NCBI GenBank assembly: GCA_963746855.1
Contig: CAVVDC010000002.1
Span: 7,588-71,587 of the forward strand
From: an uncultured Chloroflexia bacterium
GTDB taxonomy: Bacteria; Chloroflexota; Limnocylindria; Limnocylindrales; CSP1-4
Direction: 5' to 3'
Length of the DNA: 64,000 nt
Positions 34,935 to 64,000 of the stretch are shown one piece after another; within the stretch, counting starts at the first letter, position 1; every line of letters starts with the position of its first letter. The position numbers were made by a program, and so were the translations under genes. Below the pieces are notes generated by a model. That model made no database searches, was not told where the DNA came from, and was given only the letters and a program-made list of their open reading frames with translations.

Positions 34935-36076
34935 CTGCTCTCCCTCTGCTCCGCCATGTCATGGATGGGGATCGACAGTCGAACGACGGTCCCGCCGTCC
35001 GGTCGCGATCGTATGTCCAAGCGAGCCCCGATCAACTCGGCGCGCTCGCGCATGAACTGGAGGCCAAAGTTGCTCCGGCCCCTGGCCGCAACGGCCCCAG
35101 CATCGAAGCCACGGCCATCATCGCGCACCTCAAGGGTCCAGGTATCCCCGTCGAGCGACGTGCTGACGCTCACGTTGCCCGCGGATGCGTGCTTGCGGAC
35201 ATTCTGCAGGGCCTCCTGGGTGACTCGAAGCGCGACGGTTCGCGCGCGATCGTCGAGGGCCGCGCTCGGCGCGGTCAGGTCGGTCGCGATGACCAGCCCC
35301 GTCATCGCGCTCATGTGCTCGATGGTGTCCATGATGGCGCCCTCGAGACCCAGCTCGTCCAGCAGCGGCGGGCGCAGCAGGCTGATGAACGCCCGGAGCG
35401 TGCCCAGCTCGCGGCGCAGCATCTCCCGCAGGGTCGCCAGCTCCGTCGCCGCGGCACGCGCGTCGGTCGGCAGGATGCGCTCGACGTACTCGATCTGGAA
35501 GATGGCGTTGCCGAGCACCTGGGCCGGGCCATCATGGATCTCCTGCGCGAGTCGGGACCGTTCGGCCTCCTGCGCCTGGACGATGCGCATCTGGATGTCG
35601 CCGGACGTCATCGGGCCGTCCGCCTCGGTGACCAGCGAGACGTCGCCGCGTTCCATGAACAGCCATGTCCGCTCGAGCGTGCTCTGGGCAAGCTCCAGCT
35701 TGGCAAGTTCGGACTGGTGGCCGCCCAGCTGCTCGATCAACAGGTCGACCTCCGAGCGCAGGTTGCGCCGCAGGGCATCGTCCGCCCCCACCTCGGCGGC
35801 ACTCGCCGCGAGCTCCTCGGCCGTCGCTCTTGTGGCGGGTTGCCGACTCTTGCGGGTGCCGCGATCGATGCCGTCGAGCTGGTCTCGAAGCATCTGCCAG
35901 CGCGCGAGCGCCTCCCCGTAGGCCTCGCGATAGCGCTCCCGGATGCCGCGCAGCGTGTTGGCGCTGTAGCCAACGGCCGCGCTCGCTTCCGCACGGAGCC
36001 CGTCGAAGCGGTTGTCCCCGGACTGCGTCCCGGCCCGTGCTTCCATCTTCGCCCGAGTATAGGGGTCGCCTTTCAT
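34931..36076 (-). CDS. soluble sensor histidine kinase (HisKA_3 + HATPase_c)
   Basis: H-box EIHDGPAQVL, N-box EALQNVRKHA, G1 box VRDDGRGFD and G2 region GLQFMRERAELIGARLDI. No TM segment. The stop overlaps the regulator start and the start overlaps the upstream GT-C stop, both as ATGA. Confidence 0.88.
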   Translation of the reverse strand: MKGDPYTRAKMEARAGTQSGDNRFDGLRAEASAAVGYSANTLRGIRERYREAYGEALARWQMLRDQLDGIDRGTRKSRQPATRATAEELAASAAEVGADDALRRNLRSEVDLLIEQLGGHQSELAKLELAQSTLERTWLFMERGDVSLVTEADGPMTSGDIQMRIVQAQEAERSRLAQEIHDGPAQVLGNAIFQIEYVERILPTDARAAATELATLREMLRRELGTLRAFISLLRPPLLDELGLEGAIMDTIEHMSAMTGLVIATDLTAPSAALDDRARTVALRVTQEALQNVRKHASAGNVSVSTSLDGDTWTLEVRDDGRGFDAGAVAARGRSNFGLQFMRERAELIGARLDIRSRPDGGTVVRLSIPIHDMAEQRESR

Positions 36077-37692
36077 GGGCAGGCGATCTCGAAGGCCCGA
36101 ACGTCGCCGAGCGGATCGTCTCGACCCGTCGGACCGGGGCCCAGCTCGAGCTCATGGAAGCACTCGACGTCCGGCCCGGGCTGGTCGAGGACGCCCGGCC
36201 AGCCGCCGTGGTCGGCGCCGATGACGATCACGAGCCGTGTGCCCGCGAAGGCCGGATCCGACGCCAGGTCGACGATGTCGCTGGGCTTCTCCGCCGGGAG
36301 GGCCAGCGCTCGGACGCCGTGCGTCTCGGCCAGCCAGATCGGGAAGTTGGTGACGATCGGCCCGCTCGACGCGTCAAGCGGATGCCCGATGGCCGCCATC
36401 CGCGTGGCCAGCTCCTCGTACAGGGTGGCGGTCGCGCGTGAGCCACTGCCGAATGACGGCAGGACCGCGATCGAGAAGAGCAGCGATCCGAAGACCCCGA
36501 GGAGGGCCCCGAGCCAGGCCACCGGCCGCGTCCAGCCAAGCCGCACGCCGAGGCGAGCGATCCCTGCGTCCAGGGCCAGGAGTGCCGACAGGACGAGCAG
36601 GACGTGGACGGGACCCGCAGCGTGCAGGAACGTGCCCCAGGTCGTCGCGACCGGGAAGGCGAGGCTCGTGATGAGGAAGGTCATCAGCCCCAGGAGGACG
36701 ACCGGGCGGACGGCTCGGTCGCGACCCTGCCACGGCAGCGCGGCGAACCCGATGAGCGAGATCGGCACCCCCGGCAGCAGCAGGACGGAGAACAGGTTGT
36801 GGGCCAGACCCTCCACCCGCATCTCGAGGAGCCGGGCAGGCCCGACCGCGAGGTAGCGGGCGAGCGTGGGCGGATCGTTCCAGGCGAAGATGTCGAAGCC
36901 CGTCACGGACAGGGCGTTCGCCGCCGCCTGGCCCGGCAACGGGCTGCCGAAGACCACCCAGTCGCGCCACGCCCACGGCGCGAAGACCAGGAGGGCGACC
37001 GCGCCGACGAGGCCGATCATCCGGACCCGTTCGGTCCGGGTGGACGCGCGTGCCCGCCACGCCACGATGGCCCACGTCAGCCCGATCCAGATCGCCTCGT
37101 TGCGGGTCAGGGCGGCCAGGCCGATGAGCGCTCCGAGGCCGATGACGCGTGGATCGCCCAGGCGGGCACCGCGCGGCTCGCGCGCGATCCGGGTCATCAG
37201 CAGGCAGGCCGCGAGGGCGAGCACGGCGAACGACATCGTCGAGTCCGGCAGGGCCGAATGCAGGAGCAGGGGCAGGTAGAACGCCGTCGTCAGGCCCGTG
37301 CCGAGGGCCAGGGTCCGGGCGCGCCCGGTGGGCAGGCCGCGCTCCTCGGCGACGTCCGCGGCGAGGCGCCAGGCCAGGACCGGCACGACCGCCCCGACGA
37401 CGATCGAGGAGACCTGCGCAGCCTGGAACGTCGAGCCGGCGATGGCCATCGGGATCGCGGCGAGGAACGTCGGCAGCGGCAGCCACACCTCGAACGCGGG
37501 CCGCGGGAAGATGAGCGGCGGTGTCTGGTAGCTCCACAGGGCATCGGACACCAGCCCGCGTCCGTCGAGCAGGTTGCGCGCGACGCCGACGTAATAAGCC
37601 GTGTCTTCCGGCTTGGGGAACACGATCTGCGAGGCGAAGATCGCACGCGTCACCAGCGCCACGACGAAGACGAGCGCGACGGACAGCCACAT
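36073..37692 (-). CDS. ArnT-like GT-C-fold membrane glycosyltransferase
   Basis: Polytopic. The first-loop motif (PEDTAYYVGVARNLLDGRGL...) parallels its upstream paralog. The start is set at ATG 37692 (MWLSVALVF). Confidence 0.7.
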   Translation of the reverse strand: MWLSVALVFVVALVTRAIFASQIVFPKPEDTAYYVGVARNLLDGRGLVSDALWSYQTPPLIFPRPAFEVWLPLPTFLAAIPMAIAGSTFQAAQVSSIVVGAVVPVLAWRLAADVAEERGLPTGRARTLALGTGLTTAFYLPLLLHSALPDSTMSFAVLALAACLLMTRIAREPRGARLGDPRVIGLGALIGLAALTRNEAIWIGLTWAIVAWRARASTRTERVRMIGLVGAVALLVFAPWAWRDWVVFGSPLPGQAAANALSVTGFDIFAWNDPPTLARYLAVGPARLLEMRVEGLAHNLFSVLLLPGVPISLIGFAALPWQGRDRAVRPVVLLGLMTFLITSLAFPVATTWGTFLHAAGPVHVLLVLSALLALDAGIARLGVRLGWTRPVAWLGALLGVFGSLLFSIAVLPSFGSGSRATATLYEELATRMAAIGHPLDASSGPIVTNFPIWLAETHGVRALALPAEKPSDIVDLASDPAFAGTRLVIVIGADHGGWPGVLDQPGPDVECFHELELGPGPTGRDDPLGDVRAFEIACP

Positions 37693-37703
37693 CTCGCGGC
37701 GGG

Positions 37704-39359
37704 TCACGAGGCGCTCCTCGTCGCAGCGCAGCGGTGATCGTCGGGTTCGACGCAGACCGGGTAGACGCCCACGCCGAAGCGCCCGTCGCCGCCGGGGGTG
37801 GCGGTCCGCGGCTCCGTGTAGACGGGCGAGCCGATCCACGCCGGCCGGGTGTCACTGTCGAGGATCGGCCCCGCGACCGTCACGGTGTCACCGGCATCGA
37901 GGACGAGCCAGTGGATGCCATACGCGCGCGCGACCGCCTCGACCGTGTCCAGCGGGTCGTTGACGAGGACCACGCCGCCCCGGCCGGTCCAGAACCGGGT
38001 GCCCGACGCGTCGATGGACATGACTCGGTCGCTCACCGGGGCCCCCACCGCGTCGAGTGCGGCCGCGACTGCGCGGAACCGGTCTGCCCGCTTCGCCCAG
38101 TTGGCGTGGACGACGAGCGTGCCGCCGACGGCACAGACGACCGCGAATACCACCGCCGCGGTCCCGAAGAATCGGGCGCCGGCCTCGGCGTCCCAGGCCG
38201 GGCGCCGGCGGGCGACCCAGGCGACCCCGACTGCGATGCCCTCAAGGGCGAGGATGTAGGAGTGCGGCGCGAGCCCGATCGCAGAATGGATGAACGTGCC
38301 ACCGGGGACGTGGACGGCCGAGACCAGGGCGGAGAACGCGAACAGGAGGCCGGCGAAGGCGAAGAACGGCCCGAAGTCGATCGATCGACGCCGCGCCCAG
38401 CCGCCGACGACCATGAACGGGGCGAGCACGAACCCAGCGACCAGGGTCGCGTAGATCATCACGGCGGCCGCCAGGCCCCCGACCCGACTGGCGATGAGCG
38501 GACCGGCGCCCATGCCCAGGAGGTGCTCCAGGGTGGCCGGCGTCGTGATGCTGTTCCACTCCGAGATGTCACGGATGAACAGGACCTTGCCGGATGCCGT
38601 CGATGGCGAGAGCGACCCGAAGACCGCCAGCTGTCGGGCCCACCATGGCGCCATGACGAGCGCGAAGAGGGCGACACAGGCGACCGCCGCGGCGAATGGG
38701 ATGGCCGGTCGTCGCGCCCCGCGCGAACGCCAGGCTCGCCAGCGATCCCACGCGAAGGCCAGGCCGAGGGCGACCAGGACCAGGAGTCCGTCATTGCGGG
38801 ACAGCGTCGCCAGGCCGGCGAGCAGGCCCGCGCCCGCGAAGGCCCGGCCCGATCCCTTGAGTCCACGGGCGCCGAGCCACAGGGAGCCCGCGACCAGTGG
38901 CTGGTAGAGCGAGAAGTTGTCCGGCTGGACGAGATAGACCGCCGACAGCAACGGGACCGCGACGAGAACACCCGCGCCGGTCTGCACCCAGGAGCGGGCT
39001 CCGGCGTCGCGCGCGATCGCCCAGGTCAAGGGTGCGGCCAGCGAGCCGATCAGGGCGAACGGTGCCGCCGACGCCCAGGCGACATCGCCGAACACGGCGA
39101 GGAACGGCACCTGGACGATGGACGCGAGCGGCATCCAGTGCGCGTTCGACGCGATGGGCAGGACCGGGTCGGCCGGAAGCTTGCCGCCGACCTCGGCGAA
39201 GATCCAGATGAAGTCGACGTTGAAGCCCTGCCCCGCATGGAGTGCCCGCGCGACGTCGACGTAGTAGGACGAATCGGGGTAGGCCGGCTCCGGGAAGTGC
39301 CAGATGAGGACCGCCCGAACGGCCAGGGCGAGCCCGTACAGCAGTAGGGGGATACGCAC
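37704..39359 (-). CDS. ArnT-like GT-C-fold membrane glycosyltransferase
   Basis: 551 aa and polytopic. The N-terminal motif reads YPDSSYYVDVARALHAGQGF. It has a soluble C-terminal domain. Confidence 0.72.
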   Translation of the reverse strand: MRIPLLLYGLALAVRAVLIWHFPEPAYPDSSYYVDVARALHAGQGFNVDFIWIFAEVGGKLPADPVLPIASNAHWMPLASIVQVPFLAVFGDVAWASAAPFALIGSLAAPLTWAIARDAGARSWVQTGAGVLVAVPLLSAVYLVQPDNFSLYQPLVAGSLWLGARGLKGSGRAFAGAGLLAGLATLSRNDGLLVLVALGLAFAWDRWRAWRSRGARRPAIPFAAAVACVALFALVMAPWWARQLAVFGSLSPSTASGKVLFIRDISEWNSITTPATLEHLLGMGAGPLIASRVGGLAAAVMIYATLVAGFVLAPFMVVGGWARRRSIDFGPFFAFAGLLFAFSALVSAVHVPGGTFIHSAIGLAPHSYILALEGIAVGVAWVARRRPAWDAEAGARFFGTAAVVFAVVCAVGGTLVVHANWAKRADRFRAVAAALDAVGAPVSDRVMSIDASGTRFWTGRGGVVLVNDPLDTVEAVARAYGIHWLVLDAGDTVTVAGPILDSDTRPAWIGSPVYTEPRTATPGGDGRFGVGVYPVCVEPDDHRCAATRSAS

Positions 39360-39567: not shown

Positions 39568-40386
39568 ATGACCCCAGCCCGGGCCGTTCGTGACGGCGCC
39601 ATCGTCGCCGGCCTGCTCTTCACCGCGTATCTCTTCCTCGTCGTCGCGCCATCCGCCGGGACCTTCGGGTTCGACGCGTTCGCCTACTGGGCGGTCGATG
39701 GCAGCAACCCGTACGGGACCGGCGTCGGCGGGCTCGGGGCCTTCAACTACTCCCCACCGATCGCGCGGCTGTTCGACCCGTTCGGGGCGATCTCGTGGCC
39801 GGCGTTCCTGTGGATCTGGACGGCGCTCCTTATTGCGAACCTCGTCTTCCTCGGTCGGCGCGGCGTTCGGACGCTCTGGCTCCTCGCCCTGCCCCCGGTC
39901 GCCCTCGAGCTGTACCACGGCAATATCCATCTGTGGATCGCGGCGGCCATCGTGCTGGGCTTCCGCTACCCGTGGACCTGGGGATTCGTGCTGCTGACGA
40001 AGGTGACCCCGGGGGTCGGGCTCGTATGGTTCGCCGTTCGACGAGAGTGGCTGGCCCTGGCCATCGCGCTTGGGGTCACCGGGGCCATCGTGGGCGTGTC
40101 GGTGGTCGTGGATCGCGACCTGTGGGTCGACTGGATCCAGTTCCTATCCACGACGCCGGAAGGAGGATCCGTCGCCCAGTTCCAGATCGCCATCCCGCTG
40201 CTCATCCGGTTCCCTCTGGCCATCATCCTCGTCGCCTGGGGTGGCCTGACCGACCGGCGCTGGACGGTGCCGCTCGCTGCGACGTTGGCGCTGCCGGTCC
40301 TCTGGGTGAGCGGGTTCGCCATCTGCGCGGCCTGCCTGCCGCTCCTCGGGCGCCCGATCGCGACTCAGCCGGTCGCCGGACCGTGA
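39568..40386 (+). CDS. short GT87/DUF2029-like membrane protein
   Basis: 272 aa. The motif FDAFAYW...NPYG...FNYSPPIARLF and LTKVTPGVGLVWFAVRREW mark it as a paralog of 51357..52214. Confidence 0.6.
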   Translation: MTPARAVRDGAIVAGLLFTAYLFLVVAPSAGTFGFDAFAYWAVDGSNPYGTGVGGLGAFNYSPPIARLFDPFGAISWPAFLWIWTALLIANLVFLGRRGVRTLWLLALPPVALELYHGNIHLWIAAAIVLGFRYPWTWGFVLLTKVTPGVGLVWFAVRREWLALAIALGVTGAIVGVSVVVDRDLWVDWIQFLSTTPEGGSVAQFQIAIPLLIRFPLAIILVAWGGLTDRRWTVPLAATLALPVLWVSGFAICAACLPLLGRPIATQPVAGP

Positions 40387-41939
40387 CCGCCCACGCGGGC
40401 ACGGTCGCACCCGCGACCGAGCCGGTCCGGCGCCGCGGCGTCGGATGGCAGGCCCTCCTGTACCCGGCCGCCTTCCCGCTGAGCATCATCGTGCTCATCT
40501 GGGGGGAGTCGGAGATCAACCTCCTCGAGATCGTCCGACCCGTGCTCGTCGCCCTCGTCGTCACGGTCGGCCTCAACGTCCTGCTCGGTTGGCTGGCCGG
40601 TGACCGCCGGCTCGGGGCGATCGCGACGTCGGCCCTCATGATCGGGCTCATCGTCGATCGGCCTGAAGCTCGCATCCTGCTTGTCGTGGTTGCGGGCGCC
40701 GTCGTCCTCATCGGCTATGCCCCCCAGGGACGGACGCTCCGGGTGGCTGCCACGGCGACGCGGCTCCTTGAGGTCATCGGGACGATCGCGCTGGGCGCGG
40801 CACTCCTGTACGTCGCCGGGCGACCCGGTTTCCTCTCGGTCATCGGCGAGGCGTTCCTCCCCCCGCCCGGTCCCGCCACTCGTCCGATGCCACCGAATGG
40901 CACGCCCGACATCGTCGTGTACCTCATCGACGGTTACCCGGGTCTCACCGCCGCGTCACGGCTCCCCGGATTGGACGCCGCCGTCTTCCCGGACGCCCTT
41001 CGGGAACGGGGGTTCACCGTCCACGCCGACGCGCGGACGAACTACCTGATCACCCGGATCGTGCTCGCCTCGATGCTCGAGGGCCGGCACATCGCCGATA
41101 TTCCCTCGCTCTCGGCGCCGTTCGGCGATGACCCCGCCGTCGACGCCCGTCGCCTGCGGTCCGTCCAGGAGACCTCGGCCGGCCTGGCCGCCATCCGAGC
41201 GGCCGGGTACGACGTCGTGTGGGTATCGTCCGGCTGGTCCCATCTCGACATCCGCAACGTCGACCGCCGGATCGAGGCGCCCGGCCCGAGCGAGTTCGAG
41301 ATGGTCCTGTTCCGCGAGACCGCCATCGCCGACATCCTCGAGGCGATCGACCCGGCCGGGTTCGCCGACGTCATGCGGACGCGTATCGAGGCCGCTTTCG
41401 ACGAGGCCACGGCCATCGTGGCCGAGCCCCACGATCGGCCACGCTTCATCTTCGTCCACGTGCCGGCGCCCCATCCCCCGCCGGTCTACACCGCCACCGG
41501 CGCACCGGAGGACCGCAGCCCCGATTCGAGCTGGGACACGTTCGATCCGGCGTCGCAGACGCCGAGCCAACGCCTCGCCCTGCGGCCGGGGTTCGTGGAG
41601 ACGATCGGCCGGATGACCGTCGCGAGCGTCGACGCGGTACGATCCGCGGCCCCGACGCCGCCGGTGATGGTCGTCTTCTCCGACCATGGCACCGACGTCG
41701 GCTGGGATGACAGCGCGCCCATGACCTCCGATCTGGCCGAACGCAGCAGTTCGTTCCTCGCCACCCTGACCCCGGGGCGCCCGGACCTCTTCCAGGAGCC
41801 GACCACGCCCGTGAACATCATCGGGACGCTGACGAACGCCTACATGGGCACCGCCGTGCCCCGTCAGCCCGACGAAACCTTCGCCTATGACGGGTCCGTG
41901 CTCAACGTGGTCCCGATCCAGACGACCCCAGGCGACTGA
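40383..41939 (+). CDS. membrane-anchored alkaline-phosphatase-superfamily protein (sulfatase/LtaS/EptA-like), paralog 1
   Basis: N-terminal TM bundle followed by an extracytoplasmic domain with DIVVYLIDGYPG, RTNYLITRIV and VVFSDHG. A GTG start at 40383 overlapping the upstream stop (GTGA) is proposed, and the exact start is uncertain. Confidence 0.65.
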   Translation: MTAHAGTVAPATEPVRRRGVGWQALLYPAAFPLSIIVLIWGESEINLLEIVRPVLVALVVTVGLNVLLGWLAGDRRLGAIATSALMIGLIVDRPEARILLVVVAGAVVLIGYAPQGRTLRVAATATRLLEVIGTIALGAALLYVAGRPGFLSVIGEAFLPPPGPATRPMPPNGTPDIVVYLIDGYPGLTAASRLPGLDAAVFPDALRERGFTVHADARTNYLITRIVLASMLEGRHIADIPSLSAPFGDDPAVDARRLRSVQETSAGLAAIRAAGYDVVWVSSGWSHLDIRNVDRRIEAPGPSEFEMVLFRETAIADILEAIDPAGFADVMRTRIEAAFDEATAIVAEPHDRPRFIFVHVPAPHPPPVYTATGAPEDRSPDSSWDTFDPASQTPSQRLALRPGFVETIGRMTVASVDAVRSAAPTPPVMVVFSDHGTDVGWDDSAPMTSDLAERSSSFLATLTPGRPDLFQEPTTPVNIIGTLTNAYMGTAVPRQPDETFAYDGSVLNVVPIQTTPGD

Positions 41940-48208: not shown

Positions 48209-48218
48209 ACTTCCGGCG

Positions 48219-54612: not shown

Positions 54613-54619
54613 CCGGCCG

Positions 54620-55825: not shown

Positions 55826-55826
55826 G

Positions 55827-57029
55827 ATGACCGCCCCACGCCCATCGGACCCCTGTTTCGAGCCGGTCCAGCGGCCGGTCCTGACCGGGGACCGGATCCG
55901 TGTCGTCGAGGTGATCTCGACCGGCACGAACGGCGGTGCCCAGGAGCATCTCCAGTCGCTGGTCTCGCGGATCGACACGAGCCGCTATGACGTCTCGGTC
56001 GTGGCGATGTCGACCGGCAGCGCCGTGCGCAAGCTCCAGCGCACGAGCATCCCGGTCCTCGTCATCGACGACCCCGACGACGCCATCGCGGTCGGCGCGC
56101 TCGCCGCGCACCTGGCGGAGGTCCGGGCCGACGTCGTCCACGCCCATATGTACCGCGCCGAGACGGTCGCGACCCGTGCGGTCCTGGCCCTCGCCGAGAT
56201 CGGCCACCGCCGCCCCTACCTCGTCGCGACCGTTCATTCCAGCCGGGTCCGCCCCACCGAGGACCAGGCGTTCCTGCGCGAGCTGACGCCGCACATGGAC
56301 CACCTCATCGCCGTGTCACGTGCGATCCAGCACAAGCTGGTCGACGAGGAACGCACGACCGTCCCGGTCAGCCTCATCTACAACGGCGTGGACCTCGAGC
56401 GCTACGACCACCAGGAACCGTGCTGCACGCTGCCCGAGGAGTACGGCATGGAGCCCGGCTCGCAGATCGTCGGCGTCGTGGCCCGCCTCGAGCCCGAGAA
56501 GGGGCACCCCACGTTGCTCGAGGCCTGGCCGGCCGTCCTGCGGGTGGTGCCGGACGCGTATCTGCTCATCGTCGGGGAGGGGAGTCGCCGCGACGCCCTC
56601 GAGGCCCAGGCGCGCGAACTGCAGATCGCCCACCGGGTGGTGTTCACCGGGCGGCGCGATGACGTGCCGGCCGTGACCGCGGCGCTGGACGTCGCGGTCC
56701 TGCCGTCGTATCGCGAAGCGCAGGGGCTGTCCGTCCTCGAGGCCATGGCCCTGTCGCGTCCCGTGGTGGCCTCGAACGTCGGCGGGATCCCCGAGATGAT
56801 CAAGGACGGCGTCACGGGCCTGCTCGTCCCGCCGCGCGACGCGGAGGCCCTCGCGGCGGGGATCACCCGCCTCCTGCGGGATCACCCGTACGCCGACACG
56901 CTCGGGCGCGCGGGGCACGACCTCGTGCACGACCGGTTCTGCATCGAGTTGATGGTTCGCGCCGTCGAATCGATCTACGACGAGGGCGCCGGCACGGTCC
57001 GCCTGTCCGAGGTCGCGGCGGCCGGCTAG
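55827..57029 (+). CDS. GT4-family (GT-B fold) glycosyltransferase
   Basis: Motifs [22 protein letters not shown] and [44 protein letters not shown] (E-x7-E region). ATG 55827 lies 1 nt after the upstream stop. Confidence 0.9.
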
Positions 57030-57066
57030 GACCATCGGGCTGGTGCGGCCGCGCACCGCGGTTCGC

Positions 57067-57072
57067 TAGCAT
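57067..57072 (+). promoter_or_regulatory. candidate -10 (TAGCAT), 6 nt before the GTG start (leaderless candidate)
   Basis: TAGCAT at 57067-57072 and GTG at 57079. No Shine-Dalgarno sequence. Confidence 0.25.
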
Positions 57073-57078
57073 CGCGCG

Positions 57079-58590
57079 GTGACCCTGACCCGATTCTGGG
57101 CGTTCCTGGCCGTCGCGCTACCGGTCCTCGCCGCGCTCATCGCGAACCTGAGCTCGGTCGACCTCACGTACCACCTGCGTGCGGGCGACGAGATCCTCGC
57201 GACCGGTGCGCTCCCGGGCACGGACACGTGGACCTACACCGCTGCCGGCGCGGCGTGGGTCGACCAGCAATGGGGCGCCCAGGTCGTGCTCTCCGGCGTC
57301 TACCGGCTGGCCGGCTGGACCGGCCTCGTCATCCTGCGCGCGCTCCTCGTCGGGGTCATCTTCGGGTGCGTCTTCGAGATCGGGCGACGCCGTGGCCTCG
57401 GCACCCGCCGGGCTGCCGGGCTGACGTTCGCGGCATTCGTGGTCGCCGCCGTGGCGCTCGCCCTGCGCCCGCAGCTGTTCGGCATGGCCCTGTTCTCGAT
57501 CATCGTCCTGTTCGTCGTGGATCGTCGGACCCACCCGGACCGACTGTGGGTCATCCCGGTCCTCGTCGCGGTCTGGGCGAACCTGCATGGCAGCTTCTTC
57601 CTCGGCCCGCTCGTCCTCGGTCTGGCCTGGCTCGAGGACGTGCACGACCGGGTCCCCGGCGCGCGCCGGGTCCTGCTGATCGCCATCGTGAGCGCCGCGG
57701 CCGCCTGTCTGACGCCGTTCGGGCCGATGGTCTGGGTGTACGCCGTCGGTCTCTCGACCAACCCCGAGGTGACCGGCCGGATCAGCGAATGGCAGCCAAC
57801 ATCACTTCGCAGCGTCCCGGGCCTCCTCTTCTTCGCGTCGGTCGCCGCGGTCGTGGTCCTCATCGCCCGGCGCGGGGCCCGCACCAGCTGGCCGACCCTC
57901 GCCTGGCTCGCGGCGTTCGCGGCGATCGGCGCGTATGCCATCCGCGGCGTGGCCTGGTGGCCGCTCGGCGCCGTCGCGGCGATCGCCGGCGTGCTCGTGA
58001 CCGAGCCGGAACGAGACACAGGCGAGGAACGCCCGGACCCGGTCCTCATCCGTCGCATGAACGTCGTCCTTGCCGGCGCGATGGTGGTCGCGGGCATCGC
58101 GCTCCTGCCCGTGTGGCGGCCGCTTGACGAGGGGTTGCAGGCCCCGGCGGGGGTCGTCGGCAACGCGCCGCCAGGCATCACGGCGGCGCTGCGTGAGGTC
58201 GAACGCCCCGGCGATCGGCTCTTCAACCCGCAGCCCTGGGGATCCTGGTTCGAGTTCACGTTCCGGCACCTGCCGGTCGCCATCAATTCGCGGATCGAGG
58301 TGTTCCCCGTCGACGTCTGGGACCAGTACGAGCGCGTCGTGGCGGGCGTGGACGGGTGGCAGGACCAGCTCGACGAGTGGGGCGTGACGGTCGTCGTCGC
58401 GGCCGGCGACGGCCAGGACGCCTTCTCGGCCCGCCTCGAGGAGGCCGGCTGGCGCGAGGCATACCGGGACGCCGACGGCGCCGTCCTGGTTCGCCGCGAC
58501 CGACCGATCCTCGCGACGATCGACCATGTCGTCAGTACCGGGCACCGCCCGACCTTCGGGTCGCGGTGCGTGCTCGCACCCGGCTGCTAG
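57079..58590 (+). CDS. uncharacterised polytopic membrane protein with a C-terminal soluble domain (possible GT-C-like enzyme)
   Basis: 503 aa with about 10 TM helices. An early loop reads LTYHLRAGDEIL...DTWTYTAAGAAWVDQQWGAQV. I could not assign a family with confidence. Confidence 0.5.
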   Translation: MTLTRFWAFLAVALPVLAALIANLSSVDLTYHLRAGDEILATGALPGTDTWTYTAAGAAWVDQQWGAQVVLSGVYRLAGWTGLVILRALLVGVIFGCVFEIGRRRGLGTRRAAGLTFAAFVVAAVALALRPQLFGMALFSIIVLFVVDRRTHPDRLWVIPVLVAVWANLHGSFFLGPLVLGLAWLEDVHDRVPGARRVLLIAIVSAAAACLTPFGPMVWVYAVGLSTNPEVTGRISEWQPTSLRSVPGLLFFASVAAVVVLIARRGARTSWPTLAWLAAFAAIGAYAIRGVAWWPLGAVAAIAGVLVTEPERDTGEERPDPVLIRRMNVVLAGAMVVAGIALLPVWRPLDEGLQAPAGVVGNAPPGITAALREVERPGDRLFNPQPWGSWFEFTFRHLPVAINSRIEVFPVDVWDQYERVVAGVDGWQDQLDEWGVTVVVAAGDGQDAFSARLEEAGWREAYRDADGAVLVRRDRPILATIDHVVSTGHRPTFGSRCVLAPGC

Positions 58591-58593
58591 AGT
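58585..58593 (+). promoter_or_regulatory. candidate extended -10 (TGcTAGAGT), 7 nt before the ATG (leaderless candidate)
   Basis: TGCTAGAGT at 58585-58593 overlaps the upstream TAG stop. The ATG is at 58601. Confidence 0.3.
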
Positions 58594-58600
58594 CGGACGC

Positions 58601-59806
58601 ATGAGGGAAACGCCCGCCGATCTCGATGTCGTCGTCCTGGGCGGCGGGGGCCACGTCGGGCTGCCGCTCAGCCTGGCGTTCGCGCAGGCGGGCCTCACCG
58701 TCGGGATCTACGACACCAACCAGGACACGCTCGACCGCATCGCCGCGGGCGAGATGCCGTTCATGGAGGCGGGTGCCGACGAGCTGCTCCGCACCCTGCT
58801 CCCCACCGGACGGCTGGCGTTCGGCGCGGACGGCTCGATGATCGGCCGGACCGACCAGCTGGTCGTCGTCATCGGGACGCCGGTGGACGAATTCCTGGGG
58901 CCGTCGATGACGGTCTTCGAGCGGGCCGTCGACCAGATCGCGCCACATCTGCGTGACGGCGCCCTGGTCGTCCTGCGCAGCACCGTCTACCCGGGCACGA
59001 CCGGCTACGTGGCACAGCACTTGGCCGAGCGCGGCTGCACCGCGGACGTCGCGTTCTGCCCGGAGCGGATCGCGGAAGGCCACGCCCTCGAGGAGCTTCG
59101 CACGCTGCCCCAGATCGTCGGTGCCGACGACGAACGGGCCGCCGAACGGGCAGAAACCCTGTTTCGGCACCTCGCCGACAAGACGATCCGGACCTGCTCG
59201 AAGGAGGCCGAGCTGGCCAAGCTCTTCACGAACACCTGGCGCTACATGAAGTTCGCGGTGGCCAACCAGTTCCTGATGATCTCCGACCAGGCGGGCGTGG
59301 ACTACACGAACGTCCTGCGCGCGATCCGCGAGGACTACCCGCGCGCGGCCGACCTGCCCGGTCCCGGCTTCGCCGCCGGTCCGTGCCTGTTCAAGGACAC
59401 CATGCAGCTCGCCGCGTTCACGGCCGATCACTTCCCGCTCGGCCAGGCCGCGATGCAGGTCAACGAAGGGCTGCCGGCCTACATCGTCTCGGCGCTCGAA
59501 CGCCGCTACGGCGGGCTCCAGGGCAAGACCGTCGGGATCCTGGGCATGGCCTTCAAGAGCGAATCGGACGACACCCGGGCGTCGCTCAGCTACAAGCTGC
59601 GCAAGCTCCTCTCGTGGGCCGGCGCACGGGTCCTGGCCACCGATCCATACGTGGATGACGACCGCCTCGTCACGCTCGAGTGCACGCTCGAGGAGAGCGA
59701 CATCCTGGTCCTCGGGGCCCCGCACAAGGCGTACCGAGGGCTCCAGATCGGCGGCAAGGACGTGGTCGACGTCTGGGGGGCCCTCGGCGGGGGGATCCAG
59801 CTCTAG
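58601..59806 (+). CDS. nucleotide-sugar dehydrogenase (UDP-glucose/GDP-mannose dehydrogenase family)
   Basis: N-terminal Rossmann motif VVVLGGGGHVGLPLSLAFA, a catalytic Cys motif (GPCLFKD) and a C-terminal UDP-binding domain (GILGMAFKSESDDTR). Confidence 0.88.
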   Translation: MRETPADLDVVVLGGGGHVGLPLSLAFAQAGLTVGIYDTNQDTLDRIAAGEMPFMEAGADELLRTLLPTGRLAFGADGSMIGRTDQLVVVIGTPVDEFLGPSMTVFERAVDQIAPHLRDGALVVLRSTVYPGTTGYVAQHLAERGCTADVAFCPERIAEGHALEELRTLPQIVGADDERAAERAETLFRHLADKTIRTCSKEAELAKLFTNTWRYMKFAVANQFLMISDQAGVDYTNVLRAIREDYPRAADLPGPGFAAGPCLFKDTMQLAAFTADHFPLGQAAMQVNEGLPAYIVSALERRYGGLQGKTVGILGMAFKSESDDTRASLSYKLRKLLSWAGARVLATDPYVDDDRLVTLECTLEESDILVLGAPHKAYRGLQIGGKDVVDVWGALGGGIQL

Positions 59807-60828
59807 TGCGGATCCTCGTCACGGGCGCCGCCGGGTTCATCAACGGGTACCTGGTCCCCGAATTGCTCGAGGCCGGCCACGAGGTCGTCGGGCTCGACGA
59901 CTTCAGCAAGTACGGGCGCCTCGCGAAGTCCTATGACGGCCATCCGCGCTACCGGTTCGTCGAGGGTGACGCGAAGGACGCCGCGCTCATGCGCGAGCTC
60001 GCCGCGGACTGCGACCAGGTCGTGGCCGCGGCCGCGATGATCGGCGGCATCAGCTACTTCCACGAGTTCGCCTACGACCTACTCGCCGAGAACGAGCGGA
60101 TCCTCGCCTCGACGTTCGATGCCGCGATCGCCGCGCACCGCGACGGGCATCTCGCCCGCATCGTCGTCGTGTCGTCGTCGATGGTCTACGAGTCGGCGAC
60201 CACCTTCCCCACGCCCGAGGGCGCCCAGCGGACCTCGCCGCCACCGATCTCGACGTACGGCTTCCAGAAGCTCGCGTCCGAGTATTTCGCGACTGGGGCG
60301 TGGGAGCAGTACCGGCTGCCGTACACGATCGTCCGCCCGTTCAACTGCGTCGGCATCGGTGAACGTCGGGCGCTTCGCGACACGGACGTCATGAGCGGCA
60401 ACGTGAAGCTCGCGCTCTCGCACGTCGTGCCCGACCTCGCGCTCAAGATCCTCAAGGGCCAGGACCCGCTCCACATCCTGGGCGACGGCCACCAGGTCCG
60501 CCATTACACCTATGGCGGCGACCTCGCCCACGGGATCCGGCTGGCGATGGAGTCGGACGCCGCGGTCAACGAGGACTTCAATCTCTCGACCGCGGCATCG
60601 ACGACGGTGCTCGACCTCGCGGCGTGCCTCTGGCGCAAGGTCCACACCGACGGACGTCCCTTCTCCTACGTCAGCGACCCACCGTTCGAGCACGACGTCC
60701 AGCGACGCGTGCCCGATGTCCGCAAGGCGTGGGACGTGCTGGGGTTCGAGGCCACGACGTCGCTCGACGCGATGCTCGACGAGGTCGTGCCCTGGATCCG
60801 CGCCGAGGTGGAGGCCGGCCGGCTGTGA
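59806..60828 (+). CDS. NAD-dependent nucleotide-sugar epimerase/dehydratase (SDR family)
   Basis: GTG 59806 overlaps the upstream TAG. Motifs are ILVTGAAGFINGYL and YGFQKLASE (YxxxK). Confidence 0.88.
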   Translation: MRILVTGAAGFINGYLVPELLEAGHEVVGLDDFSKYGRLAKSYDGHPRYRFVEGDAKDAALMRELAADCDQVVAAAAMIGGISYFHEFAYDLLAENERILASTFDAAIAAHRDGHLARIVVVSSSMVYESATTFPTPEGAQRTSPPPISTYGFQKLASEYFATGAWEQYRLPYTIVRPFNCVGIGERRALRDTDVMSGNVKLALSHVVPDLALKILKGQDPLHILGDGHQVRHYTYGGDLAHGIRLAMESDAAVNEDFNLSTAASTTVLDLAACLWRKVHTDGRPFSYVSDPPFEHDVQRRVPDVRKAWDVLGFEATTSLDAMLDEVVPWIRAEVEAGRL

Positions 60829-61577
60829 CTGACTCGCCCGCGCCCGAGCTCGCCATCGTCCTGCCCGTCTACAACGAGGGCGAGGCCGTCGAGCCCGTGC
60901 TCCGCGCGCTAGCTGCCGGCGTCCGGACACGCCACGAGCTCGTCGTCGTCTACGACTTCGACGAGGACACCACCGTACCCGTGGTCGCCCGCCTGGCGAC
61001 CGAGATCCCGGGGCTGCGCGGTCTCCGCAACGACCTCGGGCGGGGCGTCCTCAATGCGATGAAGGCGGGCATCGCCGGGACGACCGCGCCGTATGTGCTC
61101 ATCTCGATGGCCGACGGCTCGGATGAGCCGCACGTGGTCGACCCGATGGTCGAGCTGGCCCGAGGTGGCGCCGACGTCGTCGCGGCCTCGCGCTACATGC
61201 GCGGCGGTCACCAGGTCGGCGGGCCGCCCCTCAAGCGATTGATGAGCCGGACCGCCGGCCTGACGCTGCACTGGTTCGCCGGCGTCCCGACCCACGATCC
61301 GACGAACAACTTCAAGCTCTACTCACGCCGGTTCCTCGAAGCGGTGACGATCGAGAGCACGGCCGGCTTCGAACTCGCCCTCGAGCTGACCGTGAAGGCG
61401 ACGGTGGCCAGACGACGGGTCGCCGAAGTACCCACGACGTGGCGCGACCGGACCGCCGGCCAGAGCAACTTCAAGCTGCGCAAGTGGCTGCCCCACTACC
61501 TGCACTGGTACTGGGCCGCGTTCCGGGGCCGCCTGTCACGAGGGCGAACCAGCGGGAACCACGGTGTCGCCGGATAG
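60825..61577 (+). CDS. GT2 polyprenol-phosphate-sugar synthase-like glycosyltransferase (DPM1/Ppm1-like)
   Basis: GTG 60825 overlaps the upstream stop (GTGA). Motifs are LAIVLPVYNE, SMADGSDEP and NNFKLYSRRF. Confidence 0.8.
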   Translation: MTDSPAPELAIVLPVYNEGEAVEPVLRALAAGVRTRHELVVVYDFDEDTTVPVVARLATEIPGLRGLRNDLGRGVLNAMKAGIAGTTAPYVLISMADGSDEPHVVDPMVELARGGADVVAASRYMRGGHQVGGPPLKRLMSRTAGLTLHWFAGVPTHDPTNNFKLYSRRFLEAVTIESTAGFELALELTVKATVARRRVAEVPTTWRDRTAGQSNFKLRKWLPHYLHWYWAAFRGRLSRGRTSGNHGVAG

Positions 61578-62340
61578 CGGTCCCGCCGCCGTGAGCCAGG
61601 CGCCCCGGCCGCTCGATCTCAGCCGCTGGCAGCCGATCGGTCGGATCCTCGGGCTGACGATCATCGGCGTCGAGGTCCTCTGGATCACCTACGTCATGGT
61701 CCAGAGCCTCGGGAACCCCTCGTTCGGGCTCGACTACCGCTGGCACATGGAGGCGGCCCAACGGCTGCTCGACACCGGCACGCCCTACCTGCCGTTCGAG
61801 CTGGCGGGCCCGTTCGTCATCGGGGCCGGGGCGATCCTCTACCCGCCGACGGCGTTCCTCCTGTTCATCCCGTTCCTGTGGCTGCCCGCCGTCCTGTGGT
61901 GGGTCATCCCCATCGCGATCCTCGCGTACGGGCTGTGGTGGCACCGCCCGCCACTCTGGGCCTGGGTCGTCATCACCTCGATCCTCGCCTTCGACAAGTC
62001 ACTCAACGTCTACGTCTTCGGCAACCCCTCGATGTGGGTCGTCGCGGCCATCGCGGCCGGGACCATCTGGCGGTGGCCGTTCGTGTTCGTCTTCGCCAAG
62101 CCGACGTTCACGCCGATCGCCCTGCTCGGCGCTCGTCGCCGGAGCTGGTGGGTCGCCCTGGCGGCACTGGGCGTCGCGTCGCTGCTCTTCCTGCCGATCT
62201 GGATCGACTGGTTCACGGTCGTGCGCAACTCGGACGTGTCGCTGCTGTACAACCTCCCGACGCTGCCCCTGATGCTGGCCCCGCTTGTCGCGTGGGCGTG
62301 CTCGATCCGGCGGTCAGGCGGCCTGCGCTTCGGGTCCTGA
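61564..62340 (+). CDS. short GT87/DUF2029-like membrane protein
   Basis: 258 aa with a GTG start. The motif reads GLDYRWHMEAAQRLLDTGTPY...ILYPPTAFLLFIPF. It overlaps the GT2 3' end by 14 nt. Confidence 0.55.
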   Translation: MSPDSGPAAVSQAPRPLDLSRWQPIGRILGLTIIGVEVLWITYVMVQSLGNPSFGLDYRWHMEAAQRLLDTGTPYLPFELAGPFVIGAGAILYPPTAFLLFIPFLWLPAVLWWVIPIAILAYGLWWHRPPLWAWVVITSILAFDKSLNVYVFGNPSMWVVAAIAAGTIWRWPFVFVFAKPTFTPIALLGARRRSWWVALAALGVASLLFLPIWIDWFTVVRNSDVSLLYNLPTLPLMLAPLVAWACSIRRSGGLRFGS

Positions 62341-63660
62341 CACCCCACGTCGCAGGAGCCAGATGGTGGTCGCCGCGATCGCGAGCATCGCGACCGACCC
62401 GGCGATGCCCAGCCAACCATCGACCGGGAGCAACTCGGCGATCCGCGGCGTGGGGGGCACCGCCGCCAGCAGGTTGAGCGTGAACACGACGCCGAACGCG
62501 ATCCCCAGCCAGCGCACCCGGGCCTCGGGGATCAGCAGCATCAGGAAGACCAGCGCGCCATACGCGTAGCGCTCGTGCATGCTCGTCAGGAAGCAGAAGG
62601 CGATGAGGGTGGCGGCCGCCAGGCCGAGGATGAGGGTCCGCGGACGCGGGTCGCGCAGGATGGCGAGCGCGACCAGGAGCGACGGCAACCCGGTCAGCAC
62701 GTAGCCGACGTGGCGAAGGGTCAGCGGACCGAGGAACGCCACGTCGTCCGCCACGAAGCCGCCGCCCGCGAACAGTGACTGGACGAGCCACCACAGGTTC
62801 CACGCCCGCAGCGAGAGGATGTTGAAGATCTCGCCCTGGTACTCCGCGAGGTTCTTGAGGTAGTTGGCCGGGCCACCGGCCGGGATGAACGGCAGCCAGA
62901 GCGCCATGATCACAACCAGGCCGATCGCCGCCGCACGCAGGAGCCCGCGCCACCCGCCGGTCGCCCAGAACCAGGCGGCAAACGGGACGAGGAAGGGCAG
63001 CACCTGGGGCTTGGTCATGAGTGCGACCGCCAGGAGCGCGGCGGCCAGCCCGTTTCGGCCGTTCACGGCGCAGATGACCGCGGCCAGGGTGGACGCCATG
63101 TAGATCGACTCGTACTGGCCCCACCAGGCGCTGATGTCGATGACGGCCGGGTGCAGCGCGATCGCCGCCGCTCCGATGACCGCCCATCGGGGCCGGTCAC
63201 GCAACGCGTAGGCCACCAGCAGGGCGAGCCCGATGTCCGCGACCGAGGCCGGGGTCTTCATCAGCGCCCGGATCGCCGGATCGGAGGCGTCGGTGACGGT
63301 CTGGAAGGCCGGCTGGACAGCCGCCAGCAGGCCCCAGACATAGGCCATCACCGGCGGGAAGGAGAGGTTCTGGTCGTAGGCGTTGGGCAAGCCATCGACC
63401 GCGATGCCGTGGACCCACAGGACGAACTGGTCGAGGTCGCCGCGGAGGCCCTCGGTCGGCAGCAGGACGACGCGGATGACGATGCCCGCGACGAGCGCGG
63501 CGATGAGCCCGACGATGTACGACGCCGGCCAGCGGGCTCCGGGCGCTCGGCCCGTTCCTGCGGCCCCAGGCGTCACCGGATCAGACGCGGCCGGAGACCC
63601 AGTACCGTTCCGCGGATCCGTCCACAGCGCCCAGCTCGGCGATCGCGCGTCCGTAGACAC
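62314..63660 (-). CDS. GT-C-fold membrane mannosyltransferase-like protein (Gpi18/PIG-V-like or GT87-related)
   Basis: Polytopic, with the loop motif GDLDQFVLWVHG...NAYDQNLSFPPVMAYVWG. The start is ambiguous. ATG 63660 overlaps the upstream gene by 80 nt. GTG 63576 lies 4 nt after the upstream stop and is probably better. Confidence 0.6.
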   Translation of the reverse strand: MSTDARSPSWALWTDPRNGTGSPAASDPVTPGAAGTGRAPGARWPASYIVGLIAALVAGIVIRVVLLPTEGLRGDLDQFVLWVHGIAVDGLPNAYDQNLSFPPVMAYVWGLLAAVQPAFQTVTDASDPAIRALMKTPASVADIGLALLVAYALRDRPRWAVIGAAAIALHPAVIDISAWWGQYESIYMASTLAAVICAVNGRNGLAAALLAVALMTKPQVLPFLVPFAAWFWATGGWRGLLRAAAIGLVVIMALWLPFIPAGGPANYLKNLAEYQGEIFNILSLRAWNLWWLVQSLFAGGGFVADDVAFLGPLTLRHVGYVLTGLPSLLVALAILRDPRPRTLILGLAAATLIAFCFLTSMHERYAYGALVFLMLLIPEARVRWLGIAFGVVFTLNLLAAVPPTPRIAELLPVDGWLGIAGSVAMLAIAATTIWLLRRGVSGPEAQAA

Positions 63661-64000
63661 GGACGGAGTCGGCCATCGCCTTCGTGCCGTCGAAGAGGCG
63701 CTCCAGCTGGCTCTGGTAGAGGTTGATGCCCGTGATCTTGCGCTCGAGCTGATCGGTGATGTCGGCGAACGTCGGCAGGATGGAGACGTCGCCCGGGAGG
63801 TCGGCCAGGGCGCCGGGACCGAGGTCCTCGAGCCGGCGGAAGTCGTTCCACCAGGCGTACGGGAAGTCCTCGTAGAAGGTGACGATCCCGGCGTATTCGG
63901 GGCCGGGCATCACCCAACGGCGGCCCTCCTGGAGGAGCCGGATGCCGACATCGCGACAGAGCTGATGATCGACATGGCCGCCGACGCCCAGCGGGAAATA
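63581..64000 (-). CDS. PIG-L/LmbE-family N-acetylglucosaminyl deacetylase, 5'-truncated at the window edge
   Basis: The minus-strand frame is open to the window end. The translation contains YFPLGVGGHVDHQL (the PIG-L HxDH metal motif), followed by ...YEDFPYAWW...INLYQSQL. Confidence 0.65.
   Translation of the reverse strand, partial: YFPLGVGGHVDHQLCRDVGIRLLQEGRRWVMPGPEYAGIVTFYEDFPYAWWNDFRRLEDLGPGALADLPGDVSILPTFADITDQLERKITGINLYQSQLERLFDGTKAMADSVRVYGRAIAELGAVDGSAERYWVSGRV

Follow-up and report, generated by a model that had tools for sequence, protein, structure and literature searches.

We analyzed a stretch of 64,000 nt (hereafter the window) of contig CAVVDC010000002.1 (positions 7,588-71,587; assembly GCA_963746855.1) from an uncultured Chloroflexia bacterium. 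Its last 28 kb (36073-64000, the island) are packed with genes for GT-C glycosyltransferases, putative membrane phosphotransferases of the alkaline phosphatase (AP) superfamily and enzymes resembling polyprenol-phosphate-sugar synthases. In our reading, to which we assign a probability of roughly 60%, the locus serves to assemble and decorate a glycoconjugate of the cell envelope, and this takes place at the outer face of the cytoplasmic membrane. The product would be a lipoglycan-like envelope polymer with extracytoplasmic assembly and phospho-decoration; we infer the pathway steps from protein families and gene order. The block is a syntenic chromosomal locus that is found lineage-wide and is not a mobile island. 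As the initial annotation of this DNA had proposed, it corresponds to no described pathway: it matched no characterised locus, its homologs are named ‘hypothetical protein’, none of its membrane proteins reached an NCBIfam equivalog, and full-text literature searches found no paper on the locus. The island includes one new EptA-like family, and two of its GT-C families have no Pfam model.

Protein families encoded by the island

Because the G+C content of the window is ~70% throughout, genes were called from third-position GC (GC3) and frame plots, and their starts were refined using start-codon context and ortholog alignments. Between 34188 and the window end, 24 genes (g01-g24) were found with next to no intergenic space, and every coordinate listed in the initial annotation coincided with an open reading frame (ORF) boundary recovered by the GC3 frame analysis. 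Some starts were shifted: the likely start is 37707 and not 37839 for g03 (the 36073 gene), 44736 (with GGAGG ahead of it) or 44910 and not 45153 for g08 (the 43438 gene), and 46682 and not 46625 for g10, and 63576 is a possible alternative to 63660 for g23. Start/stop overlaps of 1-14 bp (g05/g06, g06/g07, g09/g10, g11/g12, g12/g13, g19/g20, g20/g21 and g21/g22) indicate co-translated operons, and from this layout two long plus-strand operons seem to span 45159-51321 and 52288-62340. The coding strand changes three times along the locus, which gives several transcription units.

Ten of the 23 complete island genes were assigned to GT-C glycosyltransferases by Pfam, profile comparison and structure, compared to one (20617-22215) among the scanned genes of the upstream 36 kb. 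Nine such proteins had been counted initially, and the polytopic protein at 57079 had been left unclassified. All nine proved to be GT-C proteins (g13 probably so), and 57079 is indeed polytopic but can be classified, as AlphaFold2 and Foldseek gave it a GT-C_A fold. The count is ten because the 57079, 50098 and 61564 proteins join the seven assigned by Pfam (gathering scores: PMT_2, 26.1 bits; GT87 (PF09594), 25 bits; ALG6_ALG8, 25 bits):

36073-37707 (-): g03, GT-C of the PMT_2 type (PMT_2, 27.7 bits; about 10 transmembrane (TM) segments; ORF open to 37839)
37704-39359 (-): g04, GT-C of the PMT_2 type, paralog of g03 (PMT_2, 36.3 bits)
39568-40386 (+): g05, short GT87 protein, 272 aa (GT87, 47.6 bits; stop overlapping the g06 start)
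43438-44910 (-): g08, GT87 glycosyltransferase (GT87, 94.4 bits; ORF open to 45153)
49016-50101 (+): g12, GT87 glycosyltransferase (GT87, 80.8 bits; 4-bp overlaps with g11 and g13)
50098-51321 (+): g13, polytopic protein without Pfam family, probable GT-C related to PMT_2 (widened-profile hhalign)
51357-52214 (-): g14, short GT87 protein (GT87, 31.4 bits)
57079-58590 (+): g18, GT-C_A-fold glycosyltransferase without Pfam family (AlphaFold2 and Foldseek)
61564-62340 (+): g22, short GT87-like polytopic protein (no Pfam match; hhalign)
62314-63660 (-): g23, ALG6/ALG8- and GT87-like GT-C (ALG6_ALG8, 33.2 bits; ten TM segments)

An acidic residue just past the first TM helix is a mark of GT-C active sites. 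All ten proteins have 5-11 predicted TM segments, and in all ten a D or E lies within a few residues after TM1 (FDAFAYW, VDANAYW, FDFLAYH, LDYRWH, ADYTAFY, GDLDQF, PDFFYLAD, VDLTYH, EDTAYY and PDSSYY). The GT87 threshold was passed by the proteins at 39568, 43438, 49016 and 51357, while g23 scored 22.4 bits against this family, under the threshold. The two PMT_2 proteins g03 and g04 share 27% identity (hhalign probability 99.9%); g03 carries PEDTAYYV after TM1, and its ortholog alignments begin near residue 45. Those of g08 begin at residue 101-143, and a sequence search against the PDB returned nothing useful for this protein. The short proteins g05 and g14 are 39% identical, and the length of g05 is kept in its orthologs (for example at 9123-9941 of L001, the closest related locus). 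Although without a Pfam match, g22 aligned with the short GT87 paralogs (the g05 and g12 families) with 96% hhalign probability, and it carries FGLDYRWH after TM1.

The remaining two proteins have no Pfam family. The AlphaFold2 model of g18 (pLDDT 85.5) was followed in Foldseek by GT-C_A structures at all of ranks 1-16 (STT3, DPY19, ArnT, AftD, PglB and AftA; query-normalised TM-score 0.43-0.55), and the motif SVDLTYHLRAG follows TM1. Its more than 1600 homologs are uninformative in annotation, nearly all being called ‘hypothetical protein’. The link of g13 to PMT_2 comes only from a profile widened with distant representatives, which matched g04 with 90.7% hhalign probability (E 1.3e-6, 313 columns); with a shallow profile hhalign gave no relative, and a profile search against the PDB gave nothing useful. 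When 28 close and 10 distant homologs of g13 were compared to Pfam, sub-threshold hints alone were obtained (GT87 with E 0.0019 in one homolog, DUF2079 with E 0.23 in another). There is also a weak match to the LA_3751/2 putative glycosyltransferase family, and RPDFFYLADAF follows TM1. From these sequence comparisons g13 is a probable GT-C; an exhaustive HMM search put its family at 2681 representatives clustered at 50% identity.

Four membrane-anchored AP-superfamily proteins had been proposed, and we confirmed that they form one group of paralogs with an EptA-like model and an invariant site:

40383-41939 (+): g06, putative AP-superfamily membrane phosphotransferase, paralog 1 (Sulfatase, 28.5 bits)
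41939-43492 (+): g07, putative AP-superfamily membrane phosphotransferase, paralog 2, modelled (AlphaFold2 and Foldseek; Sulfatase, 21.0 bits)
45159-46685 (+): g09, putative AP-superfamily membrane phosphotransferase, paralog 3 (no Pfam match; assigned by paralogy)
46682-48208 (+): g10, putative AP-superfamily membrane phosphotransferase, paralog 4 (Sulfatase, 23.4 bits; GTG start at 46682, overlapping the g09 stop)

Mutual identity ranges from 31 to 58%, with g06 and g07 at 58%, g09 at 36-39% to these two over ~490 aa, and g10 at 31-33% to its paralogs. Because sequence and profile searches against the PDB gave nothing useful for g07 (AP-family profile only at E>=0.13), the fold evidence was taken from AlphaFold2 and Foldseek. 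The g07 model (pLDDT 89.6) consists of five N-terminal helices (25-42, 47-71, 74-89, 93-112 and 114-144) followed by an alpha/beta domain. Its best match was full-length EptA (5fgn, E 2.3e-7), and the catalytic domains of EptC, ICR-Mc and MCR-1 came next, ahead of sulfatases. The Pfam domain EptA_B_N was not detected in the paralogs. Seven residues (D175, D182, T223, H358, H363, D433 and H434) do not vary among 39 family members, and all four paralogs keep them; their spacing resembles that of the MCR-1 site (E246/T285/H395/D465-H466). The family is small; it makes up 215 clusters in 5.8 billion proteins, none of them with a name beyond ‘hypothetical’. The paralogs are a sequence family of their own, which according to the model has the architecture and Thr-nucleophile site pattern of phospho-head-group transferases.

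Enzymes of the ArnC, dolichyl-phosphate-mannose (Dol-P-Man) synthase and GtrB type make polyprenol-phosphate-sugar donors. The two proposed GT2 enzymes of this kind were recovered:

48219-49019 (+): g11, soluble GT2, polyprenol-phosphate-sugar-synthase-like (Glycos_transf_2, 75 bits)
60825-61577 (+): g21, soluble GT2, polyprenol-phosphate-sugar-synthase-like (Glycos_transf_2, 62 bits)

The nearest solved relatives of g11 are ArnC (47 bits) and Dol-P-Man synthase 5mlz (39.5 bits), and its best NCBIfam matches are dolichyl-P-hexose transferase and ArnC, both under cut-off. For g21 the nearest is the P. furiosus Dol-P-Man synthase 5mlz (67 bits), followed by ArnC and GtrB. All NCBIfam equivalogs scored far under cut-off for both proteins. 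No TM segments were predicted in either, so they have no C-terminal anchoring helices as in ArnC, GtrB or archaeal Dol-P-Man synthase; a soluble GT2 without TM segments resembles the DPM1 or Ppm1-D2 type. GT-C enzymes work with polyprenol-phosphate-linked donors on the non-cytoplasmic face. A GT-C gene directly follows each GT2 gene, and by analogy these neighboring synthase-like genes suggest that the GT-C proteins of the island use such donors. Overall, the initial family assignments held under HMM, profile and structure searches, namely GT-C/GT87/PMT_2, the AP superfamily (EptA-like) and ArnC/Dol-P-Man synthase/GtrB-like GT2.

The other island genes encode, as first described, a GT4, a CelD-like GNAT, a sugar dehydrogenase with an epimerase and a fused MFS/spermidine-synthase protein (all assigned by Pfam or NCBIfam), together with a PIG-L-type protein:

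52288-54555 (+): g15, fused MFS/spermidine-synthase-like protein (MFS_1, 42.6 bits; Spermine_synth, 26.1 bits)
54494-55825 (+): g16, CelD/BioF2-type GNAT (Acetyltransf_6, 101 bits; Mig-14, 30 bits)
55827-57029 (+): g17, cytoplasmic GT4 glycosyltransferase (Glycos_transf_1, 146 bits)
58601-59806 (+): g19, nucleoside-diphosphate (NDP)-sugar 6-dehydrogenase (TIGR03026, 275 bits, cut-off 190; three UDPG_MGDP_dh domains)
59806-60828 (+): g20, NDP-sugar epimerase/dehydratase of the short-chain dehydrogenase/reductase (SDR) type (Epimerase, 135 bits)
63581-64000 (-): g24, PIG-L-family deacetylase, C-terminal 139 aa, cut by the window end (assigned through the ortholog in related locus L015)

The fusion in g15 is described by NF037959 (‘fused MFS/spermidine synthase’, 101.9 bits, cut-off 40), and sequence comparison linked g16 to no PDB entry. 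The nearest solved relatives of g17 are BshA (2jjm, 5d00), MshA, PimB' and PimA, the protein being nearer to BshA/MshA than to PimA/PimB', with all its NCBIfam equivalog matches under cut-off. Among equivalogs, g19 comes closest to UDP-ManNAc dehydrogenase and, after it, to UDP-Glc dehydrogenase, both under cut-off, and g20 reached none. The PIG-L call holds for the family and not for the fragment itself: g24 has no Pfam match, and the domain (PIG-L, 57.8 bits) was found at the N-terminus of the full-length ortholog (L015:12753-13823(-)), which is 84% identical to the fragment.

The absence of Wzx/Wzy, ABC transporter and O-antigen ligase genes noted initially was confirmed, as no Wzx/MOP flippase, Wzy, O-antigen ligase or ABC transporter family was matched in the 24 island genes (Pfam and NCBIfam, E<=0.01).

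Conservation and variability of the locus

The AP-family alignment was used to scan one genome per species, and the island proteins were run by tblastn on the 73 loci found. Nearly all of these lie in Chloroflexota metagenome-assembled genomes (MAGs), many labelled Ca. Limnocylindria, Limnocylindrales or CSP1-4, and the closest come from Danish soil MAGs labelled ‘uncultured Chloroflexia bacterium’. The G+C content of the window agrees with the class median of 68.9% (PMC10608941). Comparative genomics mapped the island as a conserved locus in many Limnocylindria/CSP1-4 MAGs, and in many genomes its genes and their order are both retained. This order starts with two histidine kinase genes around a response regulator gene, followed by the PMT_2 pair, the short GT87, the AP paralogs with a GT87, and GT2-GT87-g13; the second half consists of MFS/spermidine synthase-GNAT-GT4-g18, dehydrogenase-SDR-GT2-g22, and the ALG6-like and PIG-L genes. 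The g11-g12-g13 triad is the most conserved module (~23 loci), and modules stay linked in spite of a rearranged order in L011, L058 and L066. The GT4 and PIG-L genes co-occur in two of these rearranged loci (L011 and L058). In L015 the PIG-L gene is the last of the island, with PCMT and an MFS transporter next. Homologs of the island proteins are all annotated as ‘hypothetical protein’.

Compared to its closest relative L001, the window showed 92% and 87% DNA identity in the flanks and only 75% in the g05-g09 segment. The g14 gene (51357-52214) is absent at its site in L001, where the blastn alignment skips 51314-52301, and L001 has a different GT87 gene (31.5 bits) between g04 and g05, so that each of the two genomes has one GT87 gene unique to it. 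Between the same anchor genes, 0 to 4 AP copies were counted, with up to 6 per 20-kb locus elsewhere; these counts are approximate because split genes are probably assembly frameshifts. As AP and GT87 paralog numbers vary between related genomes, the decoration pattern seems to differ from strain to strain, and the variable g05-g09 core is the pattern of surface-glycan loci with strain-specific decoration.

In many MFD MAG loci, genes were split into several tblastn pieces, probably by frameshift errors of long-read assemblies. Long tandem arrays of EptA-like paralogs, roughly 5-6 confirmed copies plus more fragments, lie directly upstream of the GT2-GT87-g13 triad in L014, L035, L009 and L007. 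A few members of the EptA-like family were also found in MAGs labelled Steroidobacteraceae, Actinomycetota, Ilumatobacteraceae and Zixibacteria (L028, L033, L041, L060, L064 and L073), mostly on short contigs. Where the neighboring genes can be seen, they are again those of the island, as in L033 with its Sulf-Sulf-GNAT order. These hits are probably mis-binned contigs; an alternative explanation is gene transfer.

Proposed pathway and alternative readings

The island resembles several characterised systems in part. With the phosphatidylinositol mannoside, lipomannan and lipoarabinomannan (PIM/LM/LAM) pathway of mycobacteria and corynebacteria (PimA/PimB' GT4, Ppm1 GT2, PimE and MptA-C GT87) it would share a cytoplasmic GT4 followed by GT2 polyprenol-phosphate-sugar synthesis, and stepwise extracytoplasmic extension by several GT87 proteins with no Wzx/Wzy or ABC route. 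However, the phyla differ, the proteins are not orthologs, and the island GT4 is nearer to BshA/MshA. The initial annotation had compared the island with LM/LAM and arabinogalactan assembly; this likeness stands for the GT4/GT2/GT87 logic but not for the arabinan part, as no Emb (GT53), AftA (GT85), AftB (GT89) or decaprenyl-phosphate-arabinose synthesis genes were detected in the window. AftA and AftD appeared only as generic GT-C_A fold matches of g18. The island in turn has four EptA-like phosphotransferases, PIG-L, genes for uronic-acid supply and two GT-C families that Pfam does not model, none of which belong to the PIM/LM/LAM set.

The g19-g22 module (dehydrogenase, SDR, ArnC-like GT2, GT-C) has the same order of chemistry as the Gram-negative Ugd-ArnA-ArnC-ArnT system for decorating lipid A and the LPS core, in which a sugar acid is made, loaded on polyprenol phosphate and transferred by a GT-C. 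The galacturonic-acid system of Rhizobium (RgtE/RgtA-D) is a further parallel to this module. Likeness to Arn/Ept systems extends to ArnC as the nearest solved relative of g11, to EptA, EptC and MCR-1 as the best AP folds, and to a two-component system beside the island, as with PmrAB. On the other hand, the island is without the ArnB aminotransferase, the formyltransferase and ArnE/F, its GT2 proteins are without the C-terminal TM helices of ArnC/GtrB, the AP paralogs are without EptA_B_N, and GT-C proteins are far more numerous; the host, a presumed monoderm, shows no evident lipid A pathway.

The most complete match of the enzyme-class inventory is glycosylphosphatidylinositol (GPI)-anchor synthesis, of which every core enzyme class (PIG-A GT4, PIG-L, DPM1 GT2, PIG-M/V/B/Z GT-C and the ethanolamine-phosphate transferases PIG-N/O/G) has an island counterpart, that of PIG-L being read in the L015 ortholog. 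This is a likeness of logic and not orthology. It differs in that the AP paralogs have their TM helices first (EptA topology) while PIG-N has its catalytic domain first, and no transamidase, inositol acyltransferase or phosphatidylinositol synthase was seen in the window. GT4 and PIG-L pairs (BshA/BshB, MshA/MshB, PIG-A/PIG-L) make a glucosamine-linked core. Overall, the logic of LM/LAM fits the gene set no better than that of GPI anchors, Arn/EptA or Rgt.

From the family inventory we infer an extracytoplasmic donor-by-donor assembly. Priming would take place inside the cell, where the GT4 protein g17 (BshA/MshA/PimA-like) would take a sugar, probably N-acetylhexosamine (HexNAc), off a nucleotide-sugar donor and place it on an acceptor that is a lipid or is bound to the membrane, after which the PIG-L-family protein g24 may remove the N-acetyl group. 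A nucleotide (N-acetyl)hexuronic acid or its epimer would be supplied by g19 and g20. The two GT2 proteins g11 and g21 would load two different sugars onto polyprenol phosphate, with one donor probably deriving from the uronic acid via g19-g21. These donors would be flipped to the outer face, where the ten GT-C enzymes would extend and branch the glycan residue by residue. EptA, LtaS, OpgB and BcsG-type enzymes transfer phospho-head groups from membrane phospholipids to extracytoplasmic glycans, and the four EptA/MCR-like Thr-nucleophile enzymes would likewise add substituents from phospholipid head groups. Further groups would be added by the GNAT g16 and the MFS/aminopropyltransferase-like fusion g15, and the adjoining HisKA_3/LuxR two-component system probably controls the locus. 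The same evidence fits polymerisation by the island and decoration of a polymer made elsewhere.

Several points weigh against this pathway. No flippase was identified in the island, the sole candidate being the MFS domain of g15, and three GT87-like proteins (g05, g14 and g22) measure only 258-285 aa, below characterised GT-C length. The Sulfatase threshold (25 bits) was missed by three of the four AP paralogs, none of the four matched the EptA or LtaS NCBIfam models or any other NCBIfam model, and the catalytic-domain fold matches of g07 are of moderate quality (target-normalised TM-score 0.54-0.59, 12-14% identity). The functional link between the GT4 and PIG-L genes is drawn by analogy to BshA/BshB, MshA/MshB and PIG-A/PIG-L. 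A lipid, peptidoglycan, a protein and a polymer begun elsewhere are all possible acceptors, and ten clustered GT-C genes need not serve one product.

A protein acceptor is the basis of one alternative, in which PMT_2 and STT3/PglB-like GT-C enzymes attach sugars from polyprenol-phosphate donors to secreted or surface proteins (an S-layer protein, the nearby cadherin/Big_9 adhesin or Flp pili) and the other GT-C enzymes extend them. The PMT_2 matches of g03 and g04 (a protein-mannosyltransferase-like family) are consistent with such O-glycosylation, as are the best folds of g18, the oligosaccharyltransferases STT3 and PglB and the C-mannosyltransferase DPY19, and the presence of the 978-aa adhesin and a Tad/Flp pilus locus in the same window; in actinobacteria, Pmt works together with Ppm1, a GT2. 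However, PMT_2 also takes in ArnT-like lipid and glycan transferases, and Foldseek at a TM-score of ~0.5 cannot separate GT-C_A subfamilies, with ArnT, AftD and AftA in the same g18 list. As the four EptA-like enzymes, the GT4 and PIG-L are foreign to any known bacterial O-mannosylation system, and synteny with the island in related loci does not extend to the adhesin and pilus genes, we consider this explanation unlikely.

The locus may also hold no single pathway but a gathering of independent two- or three-gene modules with different envelope targets, as Arn, Ept and Gtr are in Gram-negatives. Four modules (g11-g13, g16-g18, g19-g22 and g23-g24) also turn up separately in rearranged loci, close relatives differ in paralog content, and the strand switches divide the genes among several transcription units. 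Yet the linkage is kept across many divergent MAGs (to ~55-60% protein identity), even where the modules are reordered (L011, L058 and L066), and a strongly conserved two-component system adjoins in at least 12 loci, which makes us regard independent modules as rather unlikely.

A lipoteichoic-acid (LTA)-like polymer, with the AP paralogs as LtaS-type primases/polymerases acting on a GT4-made glycolipid anchor, was judged improbable. Head groups would here form a polyol-phosphate chain, GT2 and GT-C enzymes would glycosylate it in the manner of CsbB/GtcA/YfhO, and amino-acyl or acyl substituents would come from the GNAT. Genomes with several specialised LtaS paralogs are known: B. subtilis has four, and Listeria has LtaP as well as LtaS. 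The Firmicutes system (LafA/B or UgtP, LtaS/LtaP, CsbB-GtcA-YfhO) shares with the island a glycolipid-anchor glycosyltransferase, several AP paralogs with five TM helices and a Thr-nucleophile domain as in LtaS, and glycosylation by GT2 plus GT-C modules, and Chloroflexota are thought to be monoderm (PMC6169038). However, no LtaS structure was among the 50 best fold matches of g07 (EptA, EptC, MCR-1, ICR-Mc and sulfatases), no LtaS-type NCBIfam model was matched, Pfam found no Dlt or GtcA homolog in the island, and its ten GT-C proteins, compared to one in the LTA system, far exceed the needs of LTA glycosylation.

Two further candidates were rejected. A mobile island was dismissed as its G+C content is that of the flanks and the window is without a tRNA gene (no Rfam families were found in the window either, and no integrase families among the scanned genes of the upstream 34 kb, where a few small ORFs were left unscanned). 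Bacillithiol or mycothiol genes (g17 and g24 as BshA/BshB or MshA/MshB) scored 138 and 35 bits against equivalog cut-offs of 274 and 182 bits, and the Cys ligase is absent.

Returning to the envelope glycoconjugate, a more specific and doubtful version, built by analogy, is a GPI-like or lipomannan-like glycolipid in Limnocylindria-type Chloroflexota. It would have a de-N-acetylated hexosamine-lipid core, be extended outside the membrane by about ten GT-C enzymes from two polyprenol-phosphate-sugar donors, carry several phospho-head-group substituents due to EptA-like enzymes whose set varies with the strain, and be one of the main constituents of the unexplained outer electron-dense layer of the presumed monoderm cells. 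If the product were GPI-like, a bacterial pathway would have the full enzyme-class logic of eukaryotic GPI-anchor synthesis, and bacterial lipoglycan logic would be joined with eukaryotic GPI logic, a combination not seen before.

How the envelope of Chloroflexota is organised has long been an open question, and Limnocylindria, an ecologically important lineage, are abundant in soil and freshwater and uncultured. Genomes of Limnocylindria (Ellin6529/CSP1-4) are small, with a median of 2.39 Mb (PMC10608941). A conserved ~28 kb for extracytoplasmic glycan assembly, more than 1% of such a genome, implies a major undescribed envelope component, for which two donor synthases, ten GT-C proteins and a new EptA-like phosphotransferase family are offered as targets. 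Its strain-variable copy number, as in O-antigen loci, may reflect phage or grazer pressure.

Flanking genes and the rest of the window

The island adjoins a two-component system with two kinases around one LuxR-type regulator (32881-36076 (-)), an arrangement that is conserved in related loci:

32881-34146 (-): second HisKA_3 histidine kinase
34188-34934 (-): g01, LuxR/NarL-type response regulator (Response_reg, 87 bits; GerE, 80 bits)
34931-36076 (-): g02, HisKA_3 histidine kinase (HisKA_3, HATPase_c)

The regulator is 87-100% identical in at least 12 related loci, always beside the PMT_2 pair, and far better conserved than the adjoining glycosyltransferases (100% in L001, 87-97% in distant MAGs).

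Next to the kinases lies a Tad/Flp pilus locus (25625-32879 (-)) with two TadB/C-like T2SSF proteins, a CpaF-like ATPase, a CpaE-like ParA protein with an N-terminal receiver domain, and RcpC/CpaB. It includes four tandem Flp-type pilin genes of 55-76 aa (31629-31820, 32018-32248, 32373-32570 and 32712-32879), whose products scored 16-25 bits for Flp_Fap, under threshold, and have the motif G-(L/V)-(A/V)-EY in common.

A WecA/MraY-family polyprenol-phosphate HexNAc-1-phosphate transferase gene (1899-3053 (+); Glycos_transf_4, 118 bits; WecA model, 130 bits, under cut-off) is found 35 kb from the island, adjoining glyA and upstream of the atp operon (8289-15160). The enzyme could start a wall-linked glycan that is extended by the GT-C enzymes of the island. 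Also outside the island are an LPG_synthase_TM ‘flippase-like domain’ protein (18542-19726 (+); TIGR00374, 131 bits) and an eleventh GT-C (20617-22215 (-); PMT_2, 32 bits), the latter with a weak match to the Agl23 ‘flippase activity-associated’ model; these two are a possible pair for flipping or transfer of lipid-linked sugars. Two large secreted or surface proteins are encoded at 3206-7908 (+), one of 569 aa with a PKD domain and an adhesin of 978 aa with eight Big_9/cadherin-like repeats and an fn3 domain, and both are candidate glycoprotein substrates if the island glycosylates proteins.

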